DNA from: a phage
Sequence record: OZ346158.1
Length of the DNA: 64,000 nt
Reading direction: 5' to 3' (one strand)
In this document: positions 52,044-61,555 of the stretch, piece after piece
Layout of the letters: every line of letters begins with the position of its first letter
How positions within the stretch are numbered: the first letter of the stretch is position 1
Notes under the pieces: generated by a model
Database searches by the model: none
Told to the model about the DNA's origin: nothing
The model's input: only the letters and a program-made list of their open reading frames with translations
Program-made: the position numbers and the translations under genes

Positions 52044-53327
52044 TCATTCCAGCACCTCCCAAGTGTCTGGGTTAACATTTCGGACGCAGATACCGACAGG
52101 GAATTGGTAGTTGTTGTCTTCTGTCCTTGCTTGATATTTGAAGGTGACAAACTTGCCGATCATTTCCTGCATCCTGTCATAGCTACGCTCCTCGTGCGTG
52201 CCTTTCATCTTCATTTTAACAATAACACCTTCCTTGTCAACACAGATAAGAACACCTTCATCATTCTTATCTTTCTCAACGTCAATAACTTTCACCTCTG
52301 CGTCGTTGAACTTTTTCCATTTCAATGCTTCAGATGTTCGCTGACCGTACTCGTATTTACCGCAGAAATTACGCATGATAGTACCTTCATATCCTTCGGA
52401 CATGAATATACCAACAGATTCTTCGCAATGATCAACTGTGTACGCAAGCTCTGCGTCAACAACCTTGATATGGTCAAGCATCAGAGTGGTAACGGTATCC
52501 TCTGCATCCATAAGATCCTTGCAGCGTCCAGACTCTGTTTCTGGATCCCACCACACCTTGTCGCTAGGAATATCAAAAATGTGATACTCCAGATCGTAGC
52601 TACAGTACCCACCGTAACGCAAATCATCACGAACAGGCTCAACATCGACAGGAATATCTACCTTGTTGAAGTTTTTGTATGTTGATAAGCCTGCCTTAAT
52701 TGCTGCATGACGGCGTTTTTTATCTGCCTCATAGTCTTTATCGATCTCGGCCTGAATCTCTTCCTGTGTGCGCCACCGTTTAGCAAGAGACACTATTTTC
52801 TGCAAAGGAAGACCATGAATGTATAGTTCCCCATCAAGTTGTTTAATCCCAGTGGTAGAATGGAAAGAACGAAGTTGCTCTAAAAGCTTTCCTTGAATAG
52901 GGTAGGACTTATTACCACGGGAAATAAATTTAGGCTCACCATTTTGGAAAACAACAAGCAGACGAAGGCCATCTAACTTACGCAAGATCCAGCAAGGTAA
53001 TTTAAGTGCCTTGCCACGCTTCAGGTAGTCATGCACCAGCATGGGTAAAAGATCAACACCCTGCTCGCAATCTTCCATGTTTTCAACATACCCCAGACGG
53101 ACTTGTTTTTCCCACTTGCTGATAGCCTCAAGCTCGGCCTGTTGCTCAGCTGTAGTCTCGTTGGCACGACCTACGTTCTTAGGTGTGCATACCGTCTCTT
53201 TGTACTGCAGTTTACCATCAAGCTTGCCAAACTCTACGATAACCTTATCACCATCCGTGAATACTTTCCACTGTTGGTAGCTGCCATCTTTATTCAGTGC
53301 GTACAGTGTTGTTTTGATCTGATGCAT
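52044..53327 (-). CDS. DNA ligase (nucleotidyltransferase motifs I/IV/V)
   Basis: Motif I KLDGLR, motif IV EGTIMR, motif V LKWKKF. Confidence 0.7.
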   Translation of the reverse strand: MHQIKTTLYALNKDGSYQQWKVFTDGDKVIVEFGKLDGKLQYKETVCTPKNVGRANETTAEQQAELEAISKWEKQVRLGYVENMEDCEQGVDLLPMLVHDYLKRGKALKLPCWILRKLDGLRLLVVFQNGEPKFISRGNKSYPIQGKLLEQLRSFHSTTGIKQLDGELYIHGLPLQKIVSLAKRWRTQEEIQAEIDKDYEADKKRRHAAIKAGLSTYKNFNKVDIPVDVEPVRDDLRYGGYCSYDLEYHIFDIPSDKVWWDPETESGRCKDLMDAEDTVTTLMLDHIKVVDAELAYTVDHCEESVGIFMSEGYEGTIMRNFCGKYEYGQRTSEALKWKKFNDAEVKVIDVEKDKNDEGVLICVDKEGVIVKMKMKGTHEERSYDRMQEMIGKFVTFKYQARTEDNNYQFPVGICVRNVNPDTWEVLE

Positions 53328-53891: not shown

Positions 53892-53953
53892 AACTGACTA
53901 CCTCACTGCATACTTTCCATAATAAGTAAAGCCGGGTAATCCCGGCTATGTTG

Positions 53954-54667
53954 TTAAATATACTCTGTTACATCCTTGAAGCTCGAAGGCTTCATAATCT
54001 TACCTTTACTGTCAAGGAATATAATAACTTTATTGCCGTTGTAGAACTCCTCTTTAGCAACGAAACCTTCGTAGCGACCACCAAAACGACGCTCAAGATC
54101 TTTAATCTCCAACTCGATGAGTTGTTCAGCAGGCATATCTGCACTGGCACCGTGTGAATGCCGTAGATGGTTGATCCGTGCAAACTTACTGTCATTAGAT
54201 TTTAGAACCTTCCGCATCATCCCACACACATCCCCGCTAAGCTGGAACAGCAAAGCTGTTGATAACTCCGCTAGTCGGTAAGCTGACGCTCTTTGCTTGG
54301 ATGTGTTTTTCGCAGCGATCAGTGTATCATAGAACTCACCGATCTTGAACTTAAGACCTCGCGGATTATCAAACAGGTTTGACCACTTTTCGTGGTTATC
54401 ATTAACAAGATAAGCTGCATAACTTGTGACAACGTGAAGATCGCAGGCCTCTTTTAGCAGGTGATCTCCACCATCACCTTTCTCCAGCTCTTCCAAAACC
54501 TCATTGAACTCTTCCTCAATGAAGCTAAGCTGTAATTCGAATGGTGTGTATGATTTTTTCACTTTAGCTGCCACACGGTTCCAGTTTTCCACCCAGTTGG
54601 CAGACCAAAGGTAGTTTTCAGGCTGGGACAGTTTTTCCAGGTTGTCGATCAGTTTAGTATTCAGCAT
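53954..54667 (-). CDS. MazG-like nucleotide pyrophosphohydrolase (tentative)
   Basis: EEEFNEVLEELEKGD...LLKEACDLHVV resembles MazG EExxE/D metal-binding helices. Confidence 0.45.
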   Translation of the reverse strand: MLNTKLIDNLEKLSQPENYLWSANWVENWNRVAAKVKKSYTPFELQLSFIEEEFNEVLEELEKGDGGDHLLKEACDLHVVTSYAAYLVNDNHEKWSNLFDNPRGLKFKIGEFYDTLIAAKNTSKQRASAYRLAELSTALLFQLSGDVCGMMRKVLKSNDSKFARINHLRHSHGASADMPAEQLIELEIKDLERRFGGRYEGFVAKEEFYNGNKVIIFLDSKGKIMKPSSFKDVTEYI

Positions 54668-54680
54668 TAAAGGTCTCCTT

Positions 54681-55442
54681 TTAAAGTTCCATAAAGTTTT
54701 CTACAGTTTCAATAAATGCTTTATCAGAGAAAGCGTCAACAGCACCGTTAAACCATACAGGGATCCCGCGATCCTCATATTGATAAAGGTCGCTACGTGA
54801 AATGCCACTTCCATCTGCACTCTGCGAATCATACTTGTTTACAATCAGCAGTTTTGTGCCTTTACAAGTAGCAGGAAACAATTCCCAGTTAAAATTAATA
54901 ACTGTGTTAGAACAACCTACCAGGATCACCATATCATTGCTTGTGAGAGATGTCAACAGGTCATACATGTCTGTATACTTAGGAGCAACCTCACCGAAGA
55001 ACACTACATTGGGCTTAACCCAGGTATACTTGCCTGTATCTACCTCCGTGTATCCGATATTTTTAATTACATCATTACCTTCAGCATCTTCGTAGGTGAT
55101 TTCAGGCAAATACCCGTGGACATGTAAAATATCTTCATGTTTTACACCAGCACGCTCCAGCAAATCATCTACATTGGTAGTAAGGTTGATCACACGACCA
55201 GACCAGCGGGAATACCACTCAGCGATCCGAAGATGTGCAAGGTTAGGATCAACACTGCCCAGAGCTACACGACGTGCATTGTAAAAGTCATGCACCTTAT
55301 AGTAGTTCTTGGCAAAGGTGTGGATGTTGCACACCTCATCGATGCTGAAATTCTCCCACATTGCAGTGCTACCAGATCGGAAAGTGGGAATACCAGATTC
55401 AGCGCTCAAACCAGCACCGGAGATAATAATCAGTCGTCGCAT
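54681..55442 (-). CDS. Sir2-family NAD-dependent deacylase / ADP-ribosyltransferase
   Basis: GAGLSAESGIPTFR, TTNVDDLLERAG, catalytic HVHG, PNVVFFGE; no obvious zinc-ribbon cysteines. Confidence 0.8.
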   Translation of the reverse strand: MRRLIIISGAGLSAESGIPTFRSGSTAMWENFSIDEVCNIHTFAKNYYKVHDFYNARRVALGSVDPNLAHLRIAEWYSRWSGRVINLTTNVDDLLERAGVKHEDILHVHGYLPEITYEDAEGNDVIKNIGYTEVDTGKYTWVKPNVVFFGEVAPKYTDMYDLLTSLTSNDMVILVGCSNTVINFNWELFPATCKGTKLLIVNKYDSQSADGSGISRSDLYQYEDRGIPVWFNGAVDAFSDKAFIETVENFMEL

Positions 55443-55450
55443 AAGTGTCC

Positions 55451-55801
55451 TCAGTAGATGTTTTGTTTAATCTCTATTCCAAACTTCTTGAATGAGTCAG
55501 CAGCAAGCATAAATTTACGAGCTGCCGATGGATTAGAAGTATGCACGAAAATAATCACGTTGTCAATAAGTGGTGGCTTTCCGAATACAAGTTTCTCCTC
55601 TAGCGCAGAGAAGCAGTCGTACCCTTCAAGCACTTCACCTAGATCATTGTCAAAATGCCACTCAGAAACGCGCCTGTAGAGCTTTCTATTATCGTTAATA
55701 AAATCCATGAACTCAGAAGAGTTCTTCAGCCAAAGAGCATCTTGGATTCCGTAATTTGACGGATCTCTCAAGTCATCTAGCCACACAATCAACTTCTTCA
55801 T
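55451..55801 (-). CDS. hypothetical protein
   Basis: ORF; start MKKLIVW overlaps upstream stop. Confidence 0.5.
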   Translation of the reverse strand: MKKLIVWLDDLRDPSNYGIQDALWLKNSSEFMDFINDNRKLYRRVSEWHFDNDLGEVLEGYDCFSALEEKLVFGKPPLIDNVIIFVHTSNPSAARKFMLAADSFKKFGIEIKQNIY

Positions 55802-56733
55802 TGCATATAGTCCTCGTTGTGAAAATAGCAATCAAGTATCTCACGGCGTTCCTGCTCCAGGAGGCAGTTCCACACATCTTCTGTGTAATTGCTACGAATG
55901 AAGTTTACCATGCCATAAAACTCTTCGTCAATACGTTTAAAGATATCATCATCCCAAATCTTCCAAGCTTTACCCCTCATTACGGCCTTCCGTGCCAAAT
56001 AGTATGGAGACTTGATCTTCAGCTGCAGGTCATAAGGGTAGTAAGGCTTACGGATCATATACCCTTCGCCCCTTGTTTCTGCAGCTAATTCTTTTGCATA
56101 GCTGAACGGGATTTCACGCAAAGTGTGAGGACGTTTTGCACCAAGGTATTTGGCAATCCCATCTAAAGCTGCTTCTGGTAGCATTATTCCAGAATCATTA
56201 TATCTGCAACCTATCAAATATGCGCCATGGTCTTCTTGAACAATATGCGGATCTGAAGGGTGACAAATTTCAAACATGAATGTCATGTTTTCATTGCCCA
56301 TAACCTTCTTGATAAGATCTAAATTACCACATTGCTCTTGGATGGTTTCCTTTGCAAGGTTACAATATGGAGAATCAAGAGACCCGGTTGTTGAGAACAA
56401 TAGGTCACCTTTATGAGATGATACCACACCAAGGAATCCGTTCTTTTTCTCTACCGCAGTCACAAGCTTATTGTCAGGCAGGTTGGTGGAGTTTTCTCCC
56501 AAGTTAAACACTTTTGTGAAGGGCCATGCCACAACATTTCCTTCATTACCTACAACAATGCCTCGGCACTCCAGTAAACGAGGGGACAAATGCCATAAAT
56601 TGTTGTAAAATACTTTTCTAGCATATTTATAGATCTTTAACCCGAGATCTGGGTAATACCTACTGGTTACAAGACCTTTGTCAACTAGGTCGTCTGCATT
56701 AAAATACTTCATCATACGTTCCTCATTTGTCAT
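55798..56733 (-). CDS. RNA ligase-like nucleotidyltransferase
   Basis: Motif I VEKKNGFLG (Kx[DN]G), motif IV GEGYMIRKP, motif V LQLKIKSP; divergently adjacent to kinase/phosphoesterase pair. Confidence 0.6.
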   Translation of the reverse strand: MTNEERMMKYFNADDLVDKGLVTSRYYPDLGLKIYKYARKVFYNNLWHLSPRLLECRGIVVGNEGNVVAWPFTKVFNLGENSTNLPDNKLVTAVEKKNGFLGVVSSHKGDLLFSTTGSLDSPYCNLAKETIQEQCGNLDLIKKVMGNENMTFMFEICHPSDPHIVQEDHGAYLIGCRYNDSGIMLPEAALDGIAKYLGAKRPHTLREIPFSYAKELAAETRGEGYMIRKPYYPYDLQLKIKSPYYLARKAVMRGKAWKIWDDDIFKRIDEEFYGMVNFIRSNYTEDVWNCLLEQERREILDCYFHNEDYMQ

Positions 56734-56833: not shown

Positions 56834-57244
56834 ATGTCTAAAATGCTATATATCGTGCGTGGTCTACCAGGGTCTGGCAAATCAACACTGGCAAATGCGC
56901 TATCTTTAGAGGGTCTGTATCCACATTTTGAGAACGACATGTTCTGGTATGACGATGACGGCAATTACAACTGGGATGCAAGTAAAGTAACACTCGCAGC
57001 GAAATGGTGCAAAGATAACGTAGAAGATATGATGCGTATGGGATACGACCGTATCGTGGTAAGTAATACGTTTACAAAAGAAAAACATGTGCAGGAATAT
57101 GTTGACATGGCAATCAGTCATGGGTATAGTTATACCGTGATCGTGGTTGAAAACCGCCACGGTAATAAAAGCATTCATGATGTTCCAGACAAGGTTGTGG
57201 ATCGTATGGAACGCCAGCTTAAAAACTGCATTAAACTTAAATGA
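56834..57244 (+). CDS. P-loop kinase, polynucleotide 5'-kinase-like
   Basis: YIVRGLPGSGKSTLA resembles T4 Pnk kinase P-loop; SD aacggagggtcact. Confidence 0.6.
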   Translation: MSKMLYIVRGLPGSGKSTLANALSLEGLYPHFENDMFWYDDDGNYNWDASKVTLAAKWCKDNVEDMMRMGYDRIVVSNTFTKEKHVQEYVDMAISHGYSYTVIVVENRHGNKSIHDVPDKVVDRMERQLKNCIKLK

Positions 57245-57251
57245 GGAATGT

Positions 57252-57806
57252 ATGAAATACTTTGTAACAAGCGACACACACTTTCTCCACCAGCGGGTCA
57301 TGGAGTTTGATTCATGTCAAAAACACAGATCTCAGTATGATCACAATCTTGACAGTATGAATGCGGGAATCATCGCCGAATGGAACTCTGTTGTGTCACC
57401 TGCAGACACTGTGTTCCACTTGGGAGATATTGCGTGCACTAATGATAAGAATATCAACAACTTACTTCCAGATATTCTAAATATGTTGAACGGACATATT
57501 ATTCTTGTTCGTGGCAACCATGACACACGGACGACTGTCAGAATTATGAAAGAGTTCGGTCATGAGGTTGTAGATTATTACGAGCTTCGCCACAACAAGA
57601 ATTTGATCTGTATGAGCCATTACCAATTTGCAAAGTGGAACAGAAAGCCTCACGGATCAGTCCAACTGTTCGGTCATGCTCACGGAACCACACAACAGTT
57701 GTTTGGCAGGCAGCTTGATGTCGGTTGGGATGTGTGGGGGAGACTCTTACCATTAGAAGAGGCATACCGTATTGCAATGAGTCTTGCTATTGACAGCGGG
57801 GAGTAA
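57252..57806 (+). CDS. calcineurin-like metallophosphoesterase
   Basis: DTHF, GDI, GNHD, GHAH metal-binding motifs in order. Confidence 0.75.
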   Translation: MKYFVTSDTHFLHQRVMEFDSCQKHRSQYDHNLDSMNAGIIAEWNSVVSPADTVFHLGDIACTNDKNINNLLPDILNMLNGHIILVRGNHDTRTTVRIMKEFGHEVVDYYELRHNKNLICMSHYQFAKWNRKPHGSVQLFGHAHGTTQQLFGRQLDVGWDVWGRLLPLEEAYRIAMSLAIDSGE

Positions 57807-60742: not shown

Positions 60743-60817
60743 GCCCTGTTAGCTTAGTGGATAAAGCAGCGGCCTTCTAAGCCGTTGACACTGGTTCGAG
60801 TCCAGTACGGGGTGCCA
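60743..60817 (+). tRNA. tRNA-Arg (anticodon UCU)
   Basis: Hand-folded cloverleaf: acceptor gccctgt/acggggt, anticodon loop cuUCUaa, T-loop ttcgagt, encoded CCA. Confidence 0.85.
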
Positions 60818-60821
60818 AATT

Positions 60822-60908
60822 GGGGAGTTATCCCGTAGAGGTAGCGGTGTAGACTGTAAATCTATTGTCATTGCGACTCGGGTGGTTCGACTCCACCACT
60901 CCCCACCA
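60822..60908 (+). tRNA. tRNA-Tyr (anticodon GUA), long variable arm
   Basis: Acceptor ggggagt/actcccc, anticodon loop ctGTAaa, T-loop ttcgact, CCA. Confidence 0.85.
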
Positions 60909-61022
60909 AATTTATATTTTTAGATGCATAAATAATACAGATAATGGCATTGATATTTATCGTCGTTTATACTAGTCACTAACTGCTCGAAAATCAGTGT
61001 CATTATCAGTATAATTTATAAA

Positions 61023-61113
61023 GGAGGGTAGGGAGCAATGGTGCTCAAGCGGTCTTGAAAACCGTCCCGTTGAGGATGACTCGATGATGGTTCGATTCCA
61101 TTACTCTCCGCCA
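61023..61113 (+). tRNA. tRNA-Ser (anticodon UGA), long variable arm
   Basis: Acceptor ggagggt/actctcc, anticodon loop ctTGAaa, T-loop ttcgatt, CCA. Confidence 0.8.
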
Positions 61114-61211
61114 CATTGTTGACCTTGTAATTAAGCGAAAGCCGGAAGCAGAACCGGATTATCAAATGTTACAGTCGTCATCGCCGACTAGCAACATGGT
61201 CAACATACTGA

Positions 61212-61308
61212 GCTAGGTAAGCCCTTTGGCAAGGGCGAGGATTTTTAATCCTGAAAATAGACGAGGTAGTCGTTGAATACATAGGTGGTTCGATTCCATC
61301 ACCTAGCA
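61212..61308 (+). tRNA. atypical tRNA-like gene (possible tRNA-Lys UUU with about 30-nt variable region)
   Basis: Perfect 7-bp acceptor gctaggt/acctagc, D-arm gccc..gggc, T-loop ttcgatt; anticodon arm imperfect; 97 nt. Confidence 0.4.
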
Positions 61309-61315
61309 CCTTTTT

Positions 61316-61388
61316 GCTGATGTAGCACAATCGGTAGTGCAATTGATTTGTAATCAATAGGTTGTAGGTTCAAGTCCTGCCATCAGCA
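61316..61388 (+). tRNA. tRNA-Thr (anticodon UGU)
   Basis: Acceptor gctgatg/catcagc, anticodon stem attga/tcaat, loop ttTGTaa, T-loop ttcaagt. Confidence 0.85.
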
Positions 61389-61392
61389 CCAA

Positions 61393-61467
61393 GGCCCTGT
61401 AGCTGGAAGGTTCAAGCAAGCGACTCATAATCGCCAGACGGTGGTTCAATTCCACCCAGGGCCACCA
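61393..61467 (+). tRNA. tRNA-Met/Ile2 (anticodon CAU)
   Basis: Acceptor ggccctg/cagggcc, anticodon loop ctCATaa, T-loop ttcaatt, CCA. Confidence 0.85.
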
Positions 61468-61478
61468 AATAGTAAATA

Positions 61479-61555
61479 CTCCGCGTAGCTCAGCTTGGTA
61501 GAGCGCCTGATTTGGGATCAGGAGGTCGAGTGTTCGAATCACTCCGTGGAGACCA
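61479..61555 (+). tRNA. tRNA-Pro (anticodon UGG)
   Basis: D-arm tagctcagcttggtagagc, anticodon loop ttTGGga, T-loop ttcgaat, CCA. Confidence 0.85.

Follow-up and report, generated by a model that had tools for sequence, protein, structure and literature searches.

A distinct clade of phage sirtuins was delineated by Iyer, Burroughs, Anantharaman and Aravind in 2022 (Viruses 14:1977, PMC9503650). Section 3.7.3 of that paper recognizes three types of gene neighbourhood, names Escherichia phage V5, Proteus phage Mydo, Escherichia phage SP15 and Serratia phage BF as prototypes, and places around the V5-type gene a T4-like tRNA ligase, a protein with a cyclic-phosphate processing receiver domain (cREC), a nucleotide kinase, MazG and sometimes a calcineurin-like phosphoesterase. 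For the clade it proposes a KptA/Tpt1-like removal of RNA 2'-phosphates, itself a prediction. Here we analyse one such gene, located at positions 54681-55442 on the minus strand of a 64,000-nucleotide stretch of DNA from an rV5-like E. coli phage (sequence record OZ346158.1; the whole stretch is referred to as the window). The branch to which it belongs is best explained as a group of virus-restricted, zinc-independent canonical (PF02146) sirtuins, resembling class III in pocket and fold, inside phage modules for RNA-end healing and sealing.

The locus agrees with the published clade in its gene, its neighbourhood and the lack of an adjacent Macro domain; nothing differs here. Phage V5 shares the pair of cREC and RNA ligase genes with the window, and both the neighbourhood and homology to V5 place the sirtuin in the clade (rV5-type homologues show 93% protein identity to it). 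Databases and literature already cover the gene, the family to which it belongs and its unusual context, and the window, which is one more isolate of this phage group, adds no gene that was not already known. Four signatures of the clade, on the other hand, we did not find described: the mode of zinc-site loss, an invariant TTNVD motif, a pocket made of C38, Y54 and R57, and the near-restriction to viruses. In the text of PMC9503650 'Zn-ribbon' occurs 0 times and 'zinc' once, and zinc-ligand loss, the deleted second knuckle, TTNVD and the C38/Y54/R57 pocket are not described there. The value of the window lies in these sharper signatures, which make mutational tests easier.

The gene and its product

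54681-55442, minus strand: sirtuin gene, 253 aa, ATG start; bas56_0207 of Escherichia phage AlexBoehm
55377-55418, minus strand: NAD-binding motif GAGLSAESGIPTFR, aa 9-22, with clade-invariant G9, A10, G11, F21 and R22
55269-55331, minus strand: residues 38-58, with C38, Y54, R57 and R58 inside (SIRT5/CobB alignment)
55146-55181, minus strand: TTNVDDLLERAG, aa 88-99, the TQN(I/V)D motif with Gln changed to Thr; T89 in 119/119 homologues
55113-55118, minus strand: catalytic His109-Gly110, invariant across all alignments
55014-55115, minus strand: degenerate zinc-ribbon module, aa 110-143, without Cys and with the clade motif (I/V)GY (alignment and AlphaFold2 model)
54990-55013, minus strand: PNVVFFGE, aa 144-151, the FGE loop (sequence and clade alignment)

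An earlier note on this DNA had described a phage Sir2 protein that keeps the core sirtuin motifs and has no CxxC pairs. This observation is confirmed, because the open reading frame, the motifs, the cysteine count and the match to Pfam SIR2 all agree. Every motif quoted (GAGLSAESGIPTFR, TTNVDDLLERAG, HG and PNVVFFGE) was located in the translation, and the protein matches PF02146 with 98.2 bits (cutoff 24; E=6.9e-28) over profile positions 1-178 of 180. Its only cysteines are the scattered C38, C177 and C193, none of them in residues 110-143; there is no CxxC at all, and hence neither of the two pairs that make up the canonical zinc module. The stretch 54681-55442 therefore encodes a real, intact phage sirtuin without zinc-binding cysteines. 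AlphaFold2, run on a 149-sequence alignment, models it with a pLDDT of 94 and a pTM of 0.91.

Within the canonical catalytic set, H109, N90 and D92 are all invariant; the Gln of TQN(I/V)D is absent and replaced by T89, so that the motif reads TTNVD. The FGE loop, which lines the acyl-lysine channel in canonical sirtuins, is present. The earlier note had overlooked TTNVD, the RNA-end-repair neighbourhood, and the existing annotation and discussion of the gene and its clade.

Loss of the zinc site and the TTNVD signature

Conservation within the clade was scored over 119 homologues of 46-93% identity. Invariant or nearly so are G9, A10, G11, F21, R22, C38, Y54, R57, R58, T89, N90, V91, D92, H109, G110, K143, P144, F149, E151, G176 and S178. 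None of the columns 110-143 holds a conserved cysteine in these homologues; the zinc loss is clade-wide and not peculiar to the window's protein. Over 38 sequences reaching down to 38% identity, 29 positions stay invariant, and they include all of the NAD-binding and catalytic residues.

The 150 best representatives fall into two states, namely TQN(V/I)D with two CxxC pairs and TTNVD with no or few cysteines. Among 50%-identity representatives, the threonine is associated with cysteine loss (odds ratio 27, Fisher p=3e-14); the statistic ignores phylogeny, and because it is uncorrected in this way the two traits are to be read mainly as markers of the same clade. The Gln is mostly kept in the zinc-containing relatives. 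A column-by-column comparison with these relatives reveals how the site was lost. Their first cysteine corresponds to Y117 and their second, after a 3-residue insertion, to N123. Nothing is left of the second knuckle (C-P-x-C-G), which has been deleted between residues 137 and 138. The central (I/V)GY and the closing K-P-N-V-V-F-F-G-E are common to the zinc and zinc-free states.

In the AlphaFold2 model, the former zinc module has a pLDDT of 98 and consists of beta strands at 110-118 and 124-128 and a closing strand at 142-146. On this model, the module survives as a beta unit free of metal. Zinc ligands have been lost as well from several further lineages of viral sirtuins that keep the Gln, so that viral sirtuins with a zinc-free module are not uncommon. 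Sir2La (PDB 5OL0) was considered as a known zinc-free sirtuin of bacteria; the Sir2La preprint says nothing of the kind and the comparison was dropped.

Relation to class III sirtuins

The best matches in PDB sequence searches are E. coli CobB (3e-21), SIRT5 and Sir2Af1, and the same three proteins are the best Foldseek matches of the model (TM 0.73-0.84, 24-27% identity). In SIRT5 and CobB, the residues of the class III Y-x-x-R motif and the small residue at SIRT5 A86 make up the pocket in which the carboxylate of a lysine-linked succinyl or malonyl group is bound. The phage protein carries this motif, together with a small residue at the position of SIRT5 A86: the HMMER alignment puts C38, Y54 and R57 on SIRT5 A86, Y102 and R105, and C38, Y54, R57 and R58 are found in 119/119 homologues. 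On this alignment, the pocket of the phage sirtuin is of the SIRT5/CobB kind.

The features shared with CobB (PDB 1S5P, 6RXJ) and SIRT5 (PDB 3RIY, 2B4Y) are thus the GAG, N, D, H and FGE motifs and the Y-x-x-R anion pocket. The differences are considerable. At 24-27% identity to these enzymes, the phage sirtuin has no zinc ligands, lacks the second knuckle, has Thr for Gln, and in place of their GTSxxVYPAA its clade has GCSN(Q/T)VINFNWELFP and a C-terminal helix. Moreover, CobB and SIRT5 exert a housekeeping control over the acyl-proteome, whereas the phage clade is viral and sits in an RNA-repair context. Clear orthology to CobB, which the earlier note had named as one of the outcomes that would overturn its view, was not found: identity to CobB is 27%, and all seven NCBIfam CobB models score under their own cutoffs (NF040867 with 104 bits against 320).

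Gene neighbourhood

The sirtuin gene is surrounded by the following features.

55798-56733, minus strand: T4 Rnl1-family RNA ligase, the first operon gene (Pfam RNA_lig_T4_1 E=1.4e-14; phrog_562 E=8e-66)
55451-55801, minus strand: cREC protein (Pfam PF20274 E=5.7e-14; phrog_1479)
53954-54667, minus strand: MazG-like nucleotide pyrophosphohydrolase, the last operon gene (phrog_671 E=1.9e-21; no Pfam match)
53930-53947, minus strand: GC-rich hairpin with a T-rich tail, just 3' of the MazG-like gene (consensus scan only)
56834-57244, plus strand: P-loop polynucleotide-type kinase (Pfam AAA_33 E=1.7e-10; phrog_2071 and phrog_505 'polynucleotide kinase'; GenBank annotation)
57252-57806, plus strand: calcineurin-like metallophosphoesterase (Pfam Metallophos_2 and Metallophos; phrog_547; PDB 1xm7 E=1.7e-10)
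52044-53327, minus strand: ATP-dependent DNA ligase, the downstream neighbour (domain match), which adjoins Sir2 in Mydovirus-like relatives

The order on the minus strand is RNA ligase, cREC, sirtuin, MazG-like gene and hairpin, with gaps of 8 nt between cREC and sirtuin and 13 nt between sirtuin and the MazG-like gene. By this layout, the sirtuin gene sits in a tight operon and is co-transcribed with the Rnl1-type ligase, cREC and the MazG-like enzyme, and the hairpin at 53930-53947 is likely the operon terminator. The cREC start is TTG 55831, inside the RNA ligase gene, in the list of open reading frames (55451-55831) and ATG 55801 in GenBank; the latter ATG overlaps the RNA ligase stop codon (ATGA), which fits translational coupling. 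The kinase and metallophosphoesterase genes are transcribed divergently from the RNA ligase operon. Sequence searches of the PDB returned nothing usable for the RNA ligase, cREC, the kinase or the MazG-like protein, and for the metallophosphoesterase only the uncharacterised 1xm7.

How widely this arrangement is kept was seen in a sample of 80 IMG/VR loci. The same six partner genes surround the sirtuin, in varied order, in all Vequintavirinae-like and Mydovirus-like lineages (15/80 loci) and in Klebsiella phage Iguana, where the order is phosphoesterase, RNA ligase, cREC, kinase, Sir2, DNA ligase and MazG. In T5, a HAD_SAK_2 'Swiss Army Knife RNA repair' phosphatase is encoded two small genes past the sirtuin gene T5.102, and HAD_SAK_2 is present in 3 of the sampled T5-like neighbourhoods. 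The jumbo phages SHEFM2K and SE_PL have the order Sir2, Nudix, cREC (phrog_1479) and PhoH, and their sirtuin is zinc-free and of the TTNVD type. In a 10-kb region of a Privateervirus phage, cREC lies beside RtcB and an RNA ligase with no sirtuin gene there; since cREC adjoins these repair enzymes even without a sirtuin, its assignment as an RNA-repair component is supported.

Some 4 kb away from the RNA-repair module, at 60743-61555 (plus strand), seven phage tRNA genes form a cluster: Arg-TCT, Tyr-GTA, Ser-TGA, an odd call with a 4-base anticodon (tRNA-Lys in GenBank), Thr-TGT, one with a CAT anticodon (annotated Ile) and Pro-TGG. The tRNA-Ser that ARAGORN finds in the window is missing from the AlexBoehm annotation.

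Possible function

By analogy with known repair pathways, we tentatively favour, as a possibility that falls short of probable, a role for the sirtuin in NAD-dependent ADP-ribosyl transfer within RNA-end repair, plausibly a Tpt1-like removal of 2'-phosphate. The protein would follow ordinary sirtuin chemistry, in which NAD+ is cleaved and an oxygen nucleophile is brought onto C1'' of the ADP-ribose, and the His-activated 2''-OH would next attack in turn. The acceptor would be an anionic phosphate, not an acyl-lysine, most plausibly the 2'-phosphate at a repaired break in RNA (tRNA), making the sirtuin a functional analogue of Tpt1/KptA, after Iyer et al. 2022. In this way, the module might mirror tRNA splicing in fungi and plants, with Rnl1 for sealing, the P-loop kinase for 5' healing, cREC as the cyclic phosphodiesterase and the sirtuin for 2'-phosphate removal, and the ADP-ribose by-products might be cleared by cREC, by Nudix or MazG, and by phosphoesterases. 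Phages would direct such a heal-and-seal pathway against host anticodon nucleases. The change of Gln to Thr, the anion pocket made of C38, Y54 and R57 and the remodelling of the module that lost its zinc could then be adaptations to an RNA substrate. The stricter claim, that an RNA 2'-phosphate is the physiological substrate and that these are the first sirtuins with a nucleic-acid phosphate acceptor, is also drawn by analogy, and we consider it rather unlikely as it stands.

Several lines of evidence are consistent with a Tpt1-like role. First, the invariant anion pocket, taken together with the changes particular to the clade (Gln to Thr, the small module, and VINFNWELFP for VYPAA), suggests a changed substrate. 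Second, the recurring partners, which are esterases for cyclic and terminal phosphates and enzymes that degrade ADP-ribose, would parallel Tpt1, Cpd1 and Poa1 of yeast, and the module appears to supply analogues of all four tRNA ligation activities of fungi and plants. Third, the second step of the sirtuin reaction, the attack by the His-activated 2''-OH, would be chemically the same as the second step of Tpt1.

The proposed likeness to Tpt1/KptA is functional, comprising dependence on NAD+, an oxygen nucleophile at C1'' and a subsequent attack by the ribose 2''-OH; in addition, both proteins are linked to cyclic phosphodiesterases and ADP-ribose-degrading enzymes, and both occur in phages with RNA ligase. 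In structure they are unlike, since Tpt1/KptA has the ADP-ribosyltransferase (ART) fold and the sirtuin a Rossmann fold without sequence similarity to it, and no PTS_2-RNA/ART homology was found. A search with an E. coli KptA sequence, the matches of which were validated by their RNA 2'-phosphotransferase annotation, located KptA in 98 records of phages from other lineages, namely Erwinia, Dickeya and Klebsiella jumbo phages and Clostridioides and Bacillus phages. None of the 98 is an Escherichia or Salmonella phage record, against 665 such records that encode the sirtuin (tblastn), a distribution compatible with non-orthologous displacement. The neighbours of KptA in three jumbo phages are unannotated and give no Pfam matches, so a position equivalent to that of the sirtuin was not shown.

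A number of observations weigh against the Tpt1-like role. All residues for acyl-lysine deacylation are kept, namely H109, V181, the FGE loop and the Y-x-x-R of class III. With a pI of 4.9, against a clade median of 5.1, the protein is acidic, which is unusual in RNA-binding enzymes. A T4-type Rnl1 pathway has no need for 2'-phosphate removal, the metallophosphoesterase alone could heal ends, and E. coli possesses its own KptA. The activity of cREC is itself predicted, the protein being uncharacterised, and our literature search found no experimental work on any clade member. As for context, T5 has no RNA ligase adjacent to its sirtuin; in Phapecoctavirus-like phages the sirtuin neighbours phrog_8514 and a DNA methyltransferase, with cREC and RNA ligase elsewhere; and in several further lineages it lies away from RNA-repair genes. 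Among 25 distant, mostly zinc-containing viral sirtuins there was no enrichment of RNA-repair neighbours, and the argument from context is for this reason limited to the TTNVD clade.

Because every deacylation residue is conserved, a plain deacylase would look identical, and indeed a CobB-like protein deacylase is nearly as likely as the Tpt1-like enzyme. We regard as a serious possibility, if again not a probable one, an ordinary NAD-dependent lysine deacylase with a CobB/SIRT5-like preference for acidic acyl groups (succinyl, malonyl) or acetyl on host or phage proteins, in which a hydrophobic mini-core replaces the zinc site. Such an enzyme could reactivate proteins with acylated lysines, for example at ligase active sites or in the translation and transcription machinery. 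Class III deacylases are its best matches in sequence and fold. V181 and the FGE loop are invariant, as are the catalytic His and the triad of SIRT5 type (C38 for A86, Y54 and R57), and almost every characterised member of PF02146 that has these residues is a deacylase. Two lysine-adenylylating ligases flank the gene, and the DNA ligase adjoins Sir2 in Mydovirus-like phages. What a deacylase leaves unexplained is the recurrent linkage to cREC, HAD_SAK_2, Nudix and metallophosphoesterase in three divergent phage lineages, and the invariant change of Gln to Thr in a motif that contacts the NAD ribose points to altered chemistry. Furthermore, the zinc module is reported to be necessary for deacetylation by canonical sirtuins (PMC12700824).

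A small-molecule acceptor appears improbable. Here, ADP-ribose would be transferred to a phosphorylated nucleotide or metabolite, or an ADP-ribose derivative made from one, as part of an NAD/ADP-ribose network for salvage and counter-defence and not for RNA repair. The Nudix, MazG, cREC, HAD and metallophosphoesterase partners all act on nucleotide-type substrates, the acidic pI agrees, and CobB is able to replace a phosphoribosyltransferase acting on a base acceptor, according to work cited in PMC9503650. NAD-salvage genes are found 2-6 kb away in two relatives: the Salmonella jumbo phage SE_PL (L086) encodes an NMNAT and a nicotinate/nicotinamide phosphoribosyltransferase 2-4 kb upstream of its sirtuin, and Iguana (L004) has NAMPT and PRPP synthetase near it. 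By contrast, the annotation of AlexBoehm shows no gene for NAD salvage over the 62 kb that were examined, the presence of an RNA ligase and a polynucleotide-type kinase in the cluster speaks for polynucleotide ends, and no particular acceptor can be named. Papers on NARP3 and on aRES/phage phosphatase, considered as a link to counter-defence, concern NadR and PnuC in the first case and a phosphatase with a Macro domain in the second, and have no bearing on this sirtuin.

The earlier note had compared the protein with the NAD-depleting defence effectors of bacteria. Its assignment to the Sir2 family, with a catalytic His and NAD motifs, holds; the comparison with defence NADases is not supported. 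The Sir2 domain is present, and zinc-module loss is typical of NADase-type SIR2_2 proteins, which are without the small beta module altogether (PMC12700824). With ThsA, DSR1/2, Sir2-HerA and SPARSA the phage sirtuin shares the superfamily and the absence of bound zinc. Those proteins belong to SIR2_2, hydrolyse NAD+ and are equipped with partners or sensor domains, and nothing of the sort is seen here. The phage protein scores 13.2 bits against the SIR2_2 profile (cutoff 24.5), no PADLOC defence model matches it (best E=0.011, over 33 residues), its small beta module is kept, and its nearest counterparts in sequence and fold are class III deacylases. It is a single-domain protein of 253 aa with no fused or adjacent sensor or partner (SLOG, HerA, pAgo or large terminal domains), and no Macro domain of the kind found in SirTM-type pairs is present among the nine neighbouring proteins scanned. 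Constitutive carriage by more than 1000 lytic phage genomes also fits poorly with an unregulated NAD-depleting toxin. An NADase or manipulator of NAD pools like defence Sir2, or a SirTM- or HerA-linked toxin that mono-ADP-ribosylates protein or DNA, is therefore highly improbable. A catalytically dead or purely structural remnant, as the loss of the zinc ligands and the conserved Gln might suggest, is hardly credible given the 29 invariant positions, the compact and confident model and the retention across many phage families.

To return to the Tpt1-like role, if the RNA-repair prediction were true, the chemistry of sirtuins would reach beyond acyl-lysines to the phosphates of RNA, the Tpt1 reaction would turn out to have been solved a second time by a non-homologous enzyme, and phage counter-defence against tRNA-cleaving immunity would include an NAD+-consuming step. 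If a deacylase, the protein would demonstrate that a canonical sirtuin needs no structural zinc in order to work and that the acyl-proteome of the host is remodelled by phages. Either would concern a clade known from more than 1000 phage genomes, among them that of T5, a model phage, and those of the Vequintavirinae in the BASEL collection, with no activity reported for any member.

Distribution and previous annotation

Bases 54000-56000 of the window are 100% identical to Escherichia phages AlexBoehm (Bas56, MZ501048.1, Vequintavirus) and I29, and 90-99% identical to 119 further Vequintavirus records. The AlexBoehm record labels bas56_0207 'sirtuin domain NAD-dependent deacetylase', and the protein falls in PHROG 2162, 'Sir2 (NAD-dependent deacetylase)' (E=1.5e-108). 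By tblastn, homologues are encoded in 1012/50,697 phage records, the carriers including T5-like, Mydovirus-like and Phapecoctavirus-like phages, Vibrio schizo-T4 phages and 350-kb jumbo phages. T5.102, annotated as Sir2-like in GenBank AY543070, is 57% identical to the window's protein.

Among 1.84 billion cluster representatives, 5496 relatives were found at E<=1e-3 and 73 at E<=1e-30. In cellular genomes (one per species, 185,579 species), two Marinobacterium metagenome-assembled genomes encode relatives with TTNVD at 43-47% identity, and the rest stay at or below 34%. The clade is essentially viral.

Compared over 41302-64000, the window is identical to MZ501048.1 around the sirtuin, shows a 698-nt offset further upstream, and runs about 2 kb beyond the linear end of that record without matching its start. 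It therefore comes from a closely related or differently permuted genome. About 25 'Campylobacter phage' records (MG065653, MG065676, MG065645, MG065650 and others) also carry a sirtuin match; in 18 of them the DNA is highly similar to that of the window (identity up to 100%) and the rest of the module is there too, whereas the remainder match sequences of Phapecoctavirus type. These records have the look of coliphage assemblies that were mislabelled or are contaminants.

Other neighbouring families

In the neighbourhoods of 12 sampled loci, from T5-like and other lineages, DUF7415 is the commonest family, with 7 proteins. In T5 itself, T5.106 and T5.107 (L002:7642-8478) are tandem DUF7415 genes downstream of HAD_SAK_2, and the arrangement is similar in other T5-like loci. 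The uncharacterised family phrog_8514 (about 204-235 aa) is encoded directly upstream of the sirtuin, or one gene before it, in three separate sirtuin clusters of Phapecoctavirus-like and related phages (L015:6783-7454, L027:7041-7733 and L035:7026-7733), with a phrog_757 DNA methyltransferase further upstream in 2/3. Its proteins were compared with the MazG-like protein as possible relatives and are unrelated to it.

Finally, a gene of the Nitroreductase family lies at most three genes from the sirtuin in 5 of the 25 distant loci sampled (among L041-L085, mostly zinc-keeping), and three of the five also match TM1586_NiRdase. BluB dimethylbenzimidazole synthases are members of this family, and it was the metabolism of the cobalamin lower ligand that first led to CobB. 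By that analogy, a link between the Nitroreductase neighbours and the zinc-keeping viral sirtuins is conceivable.

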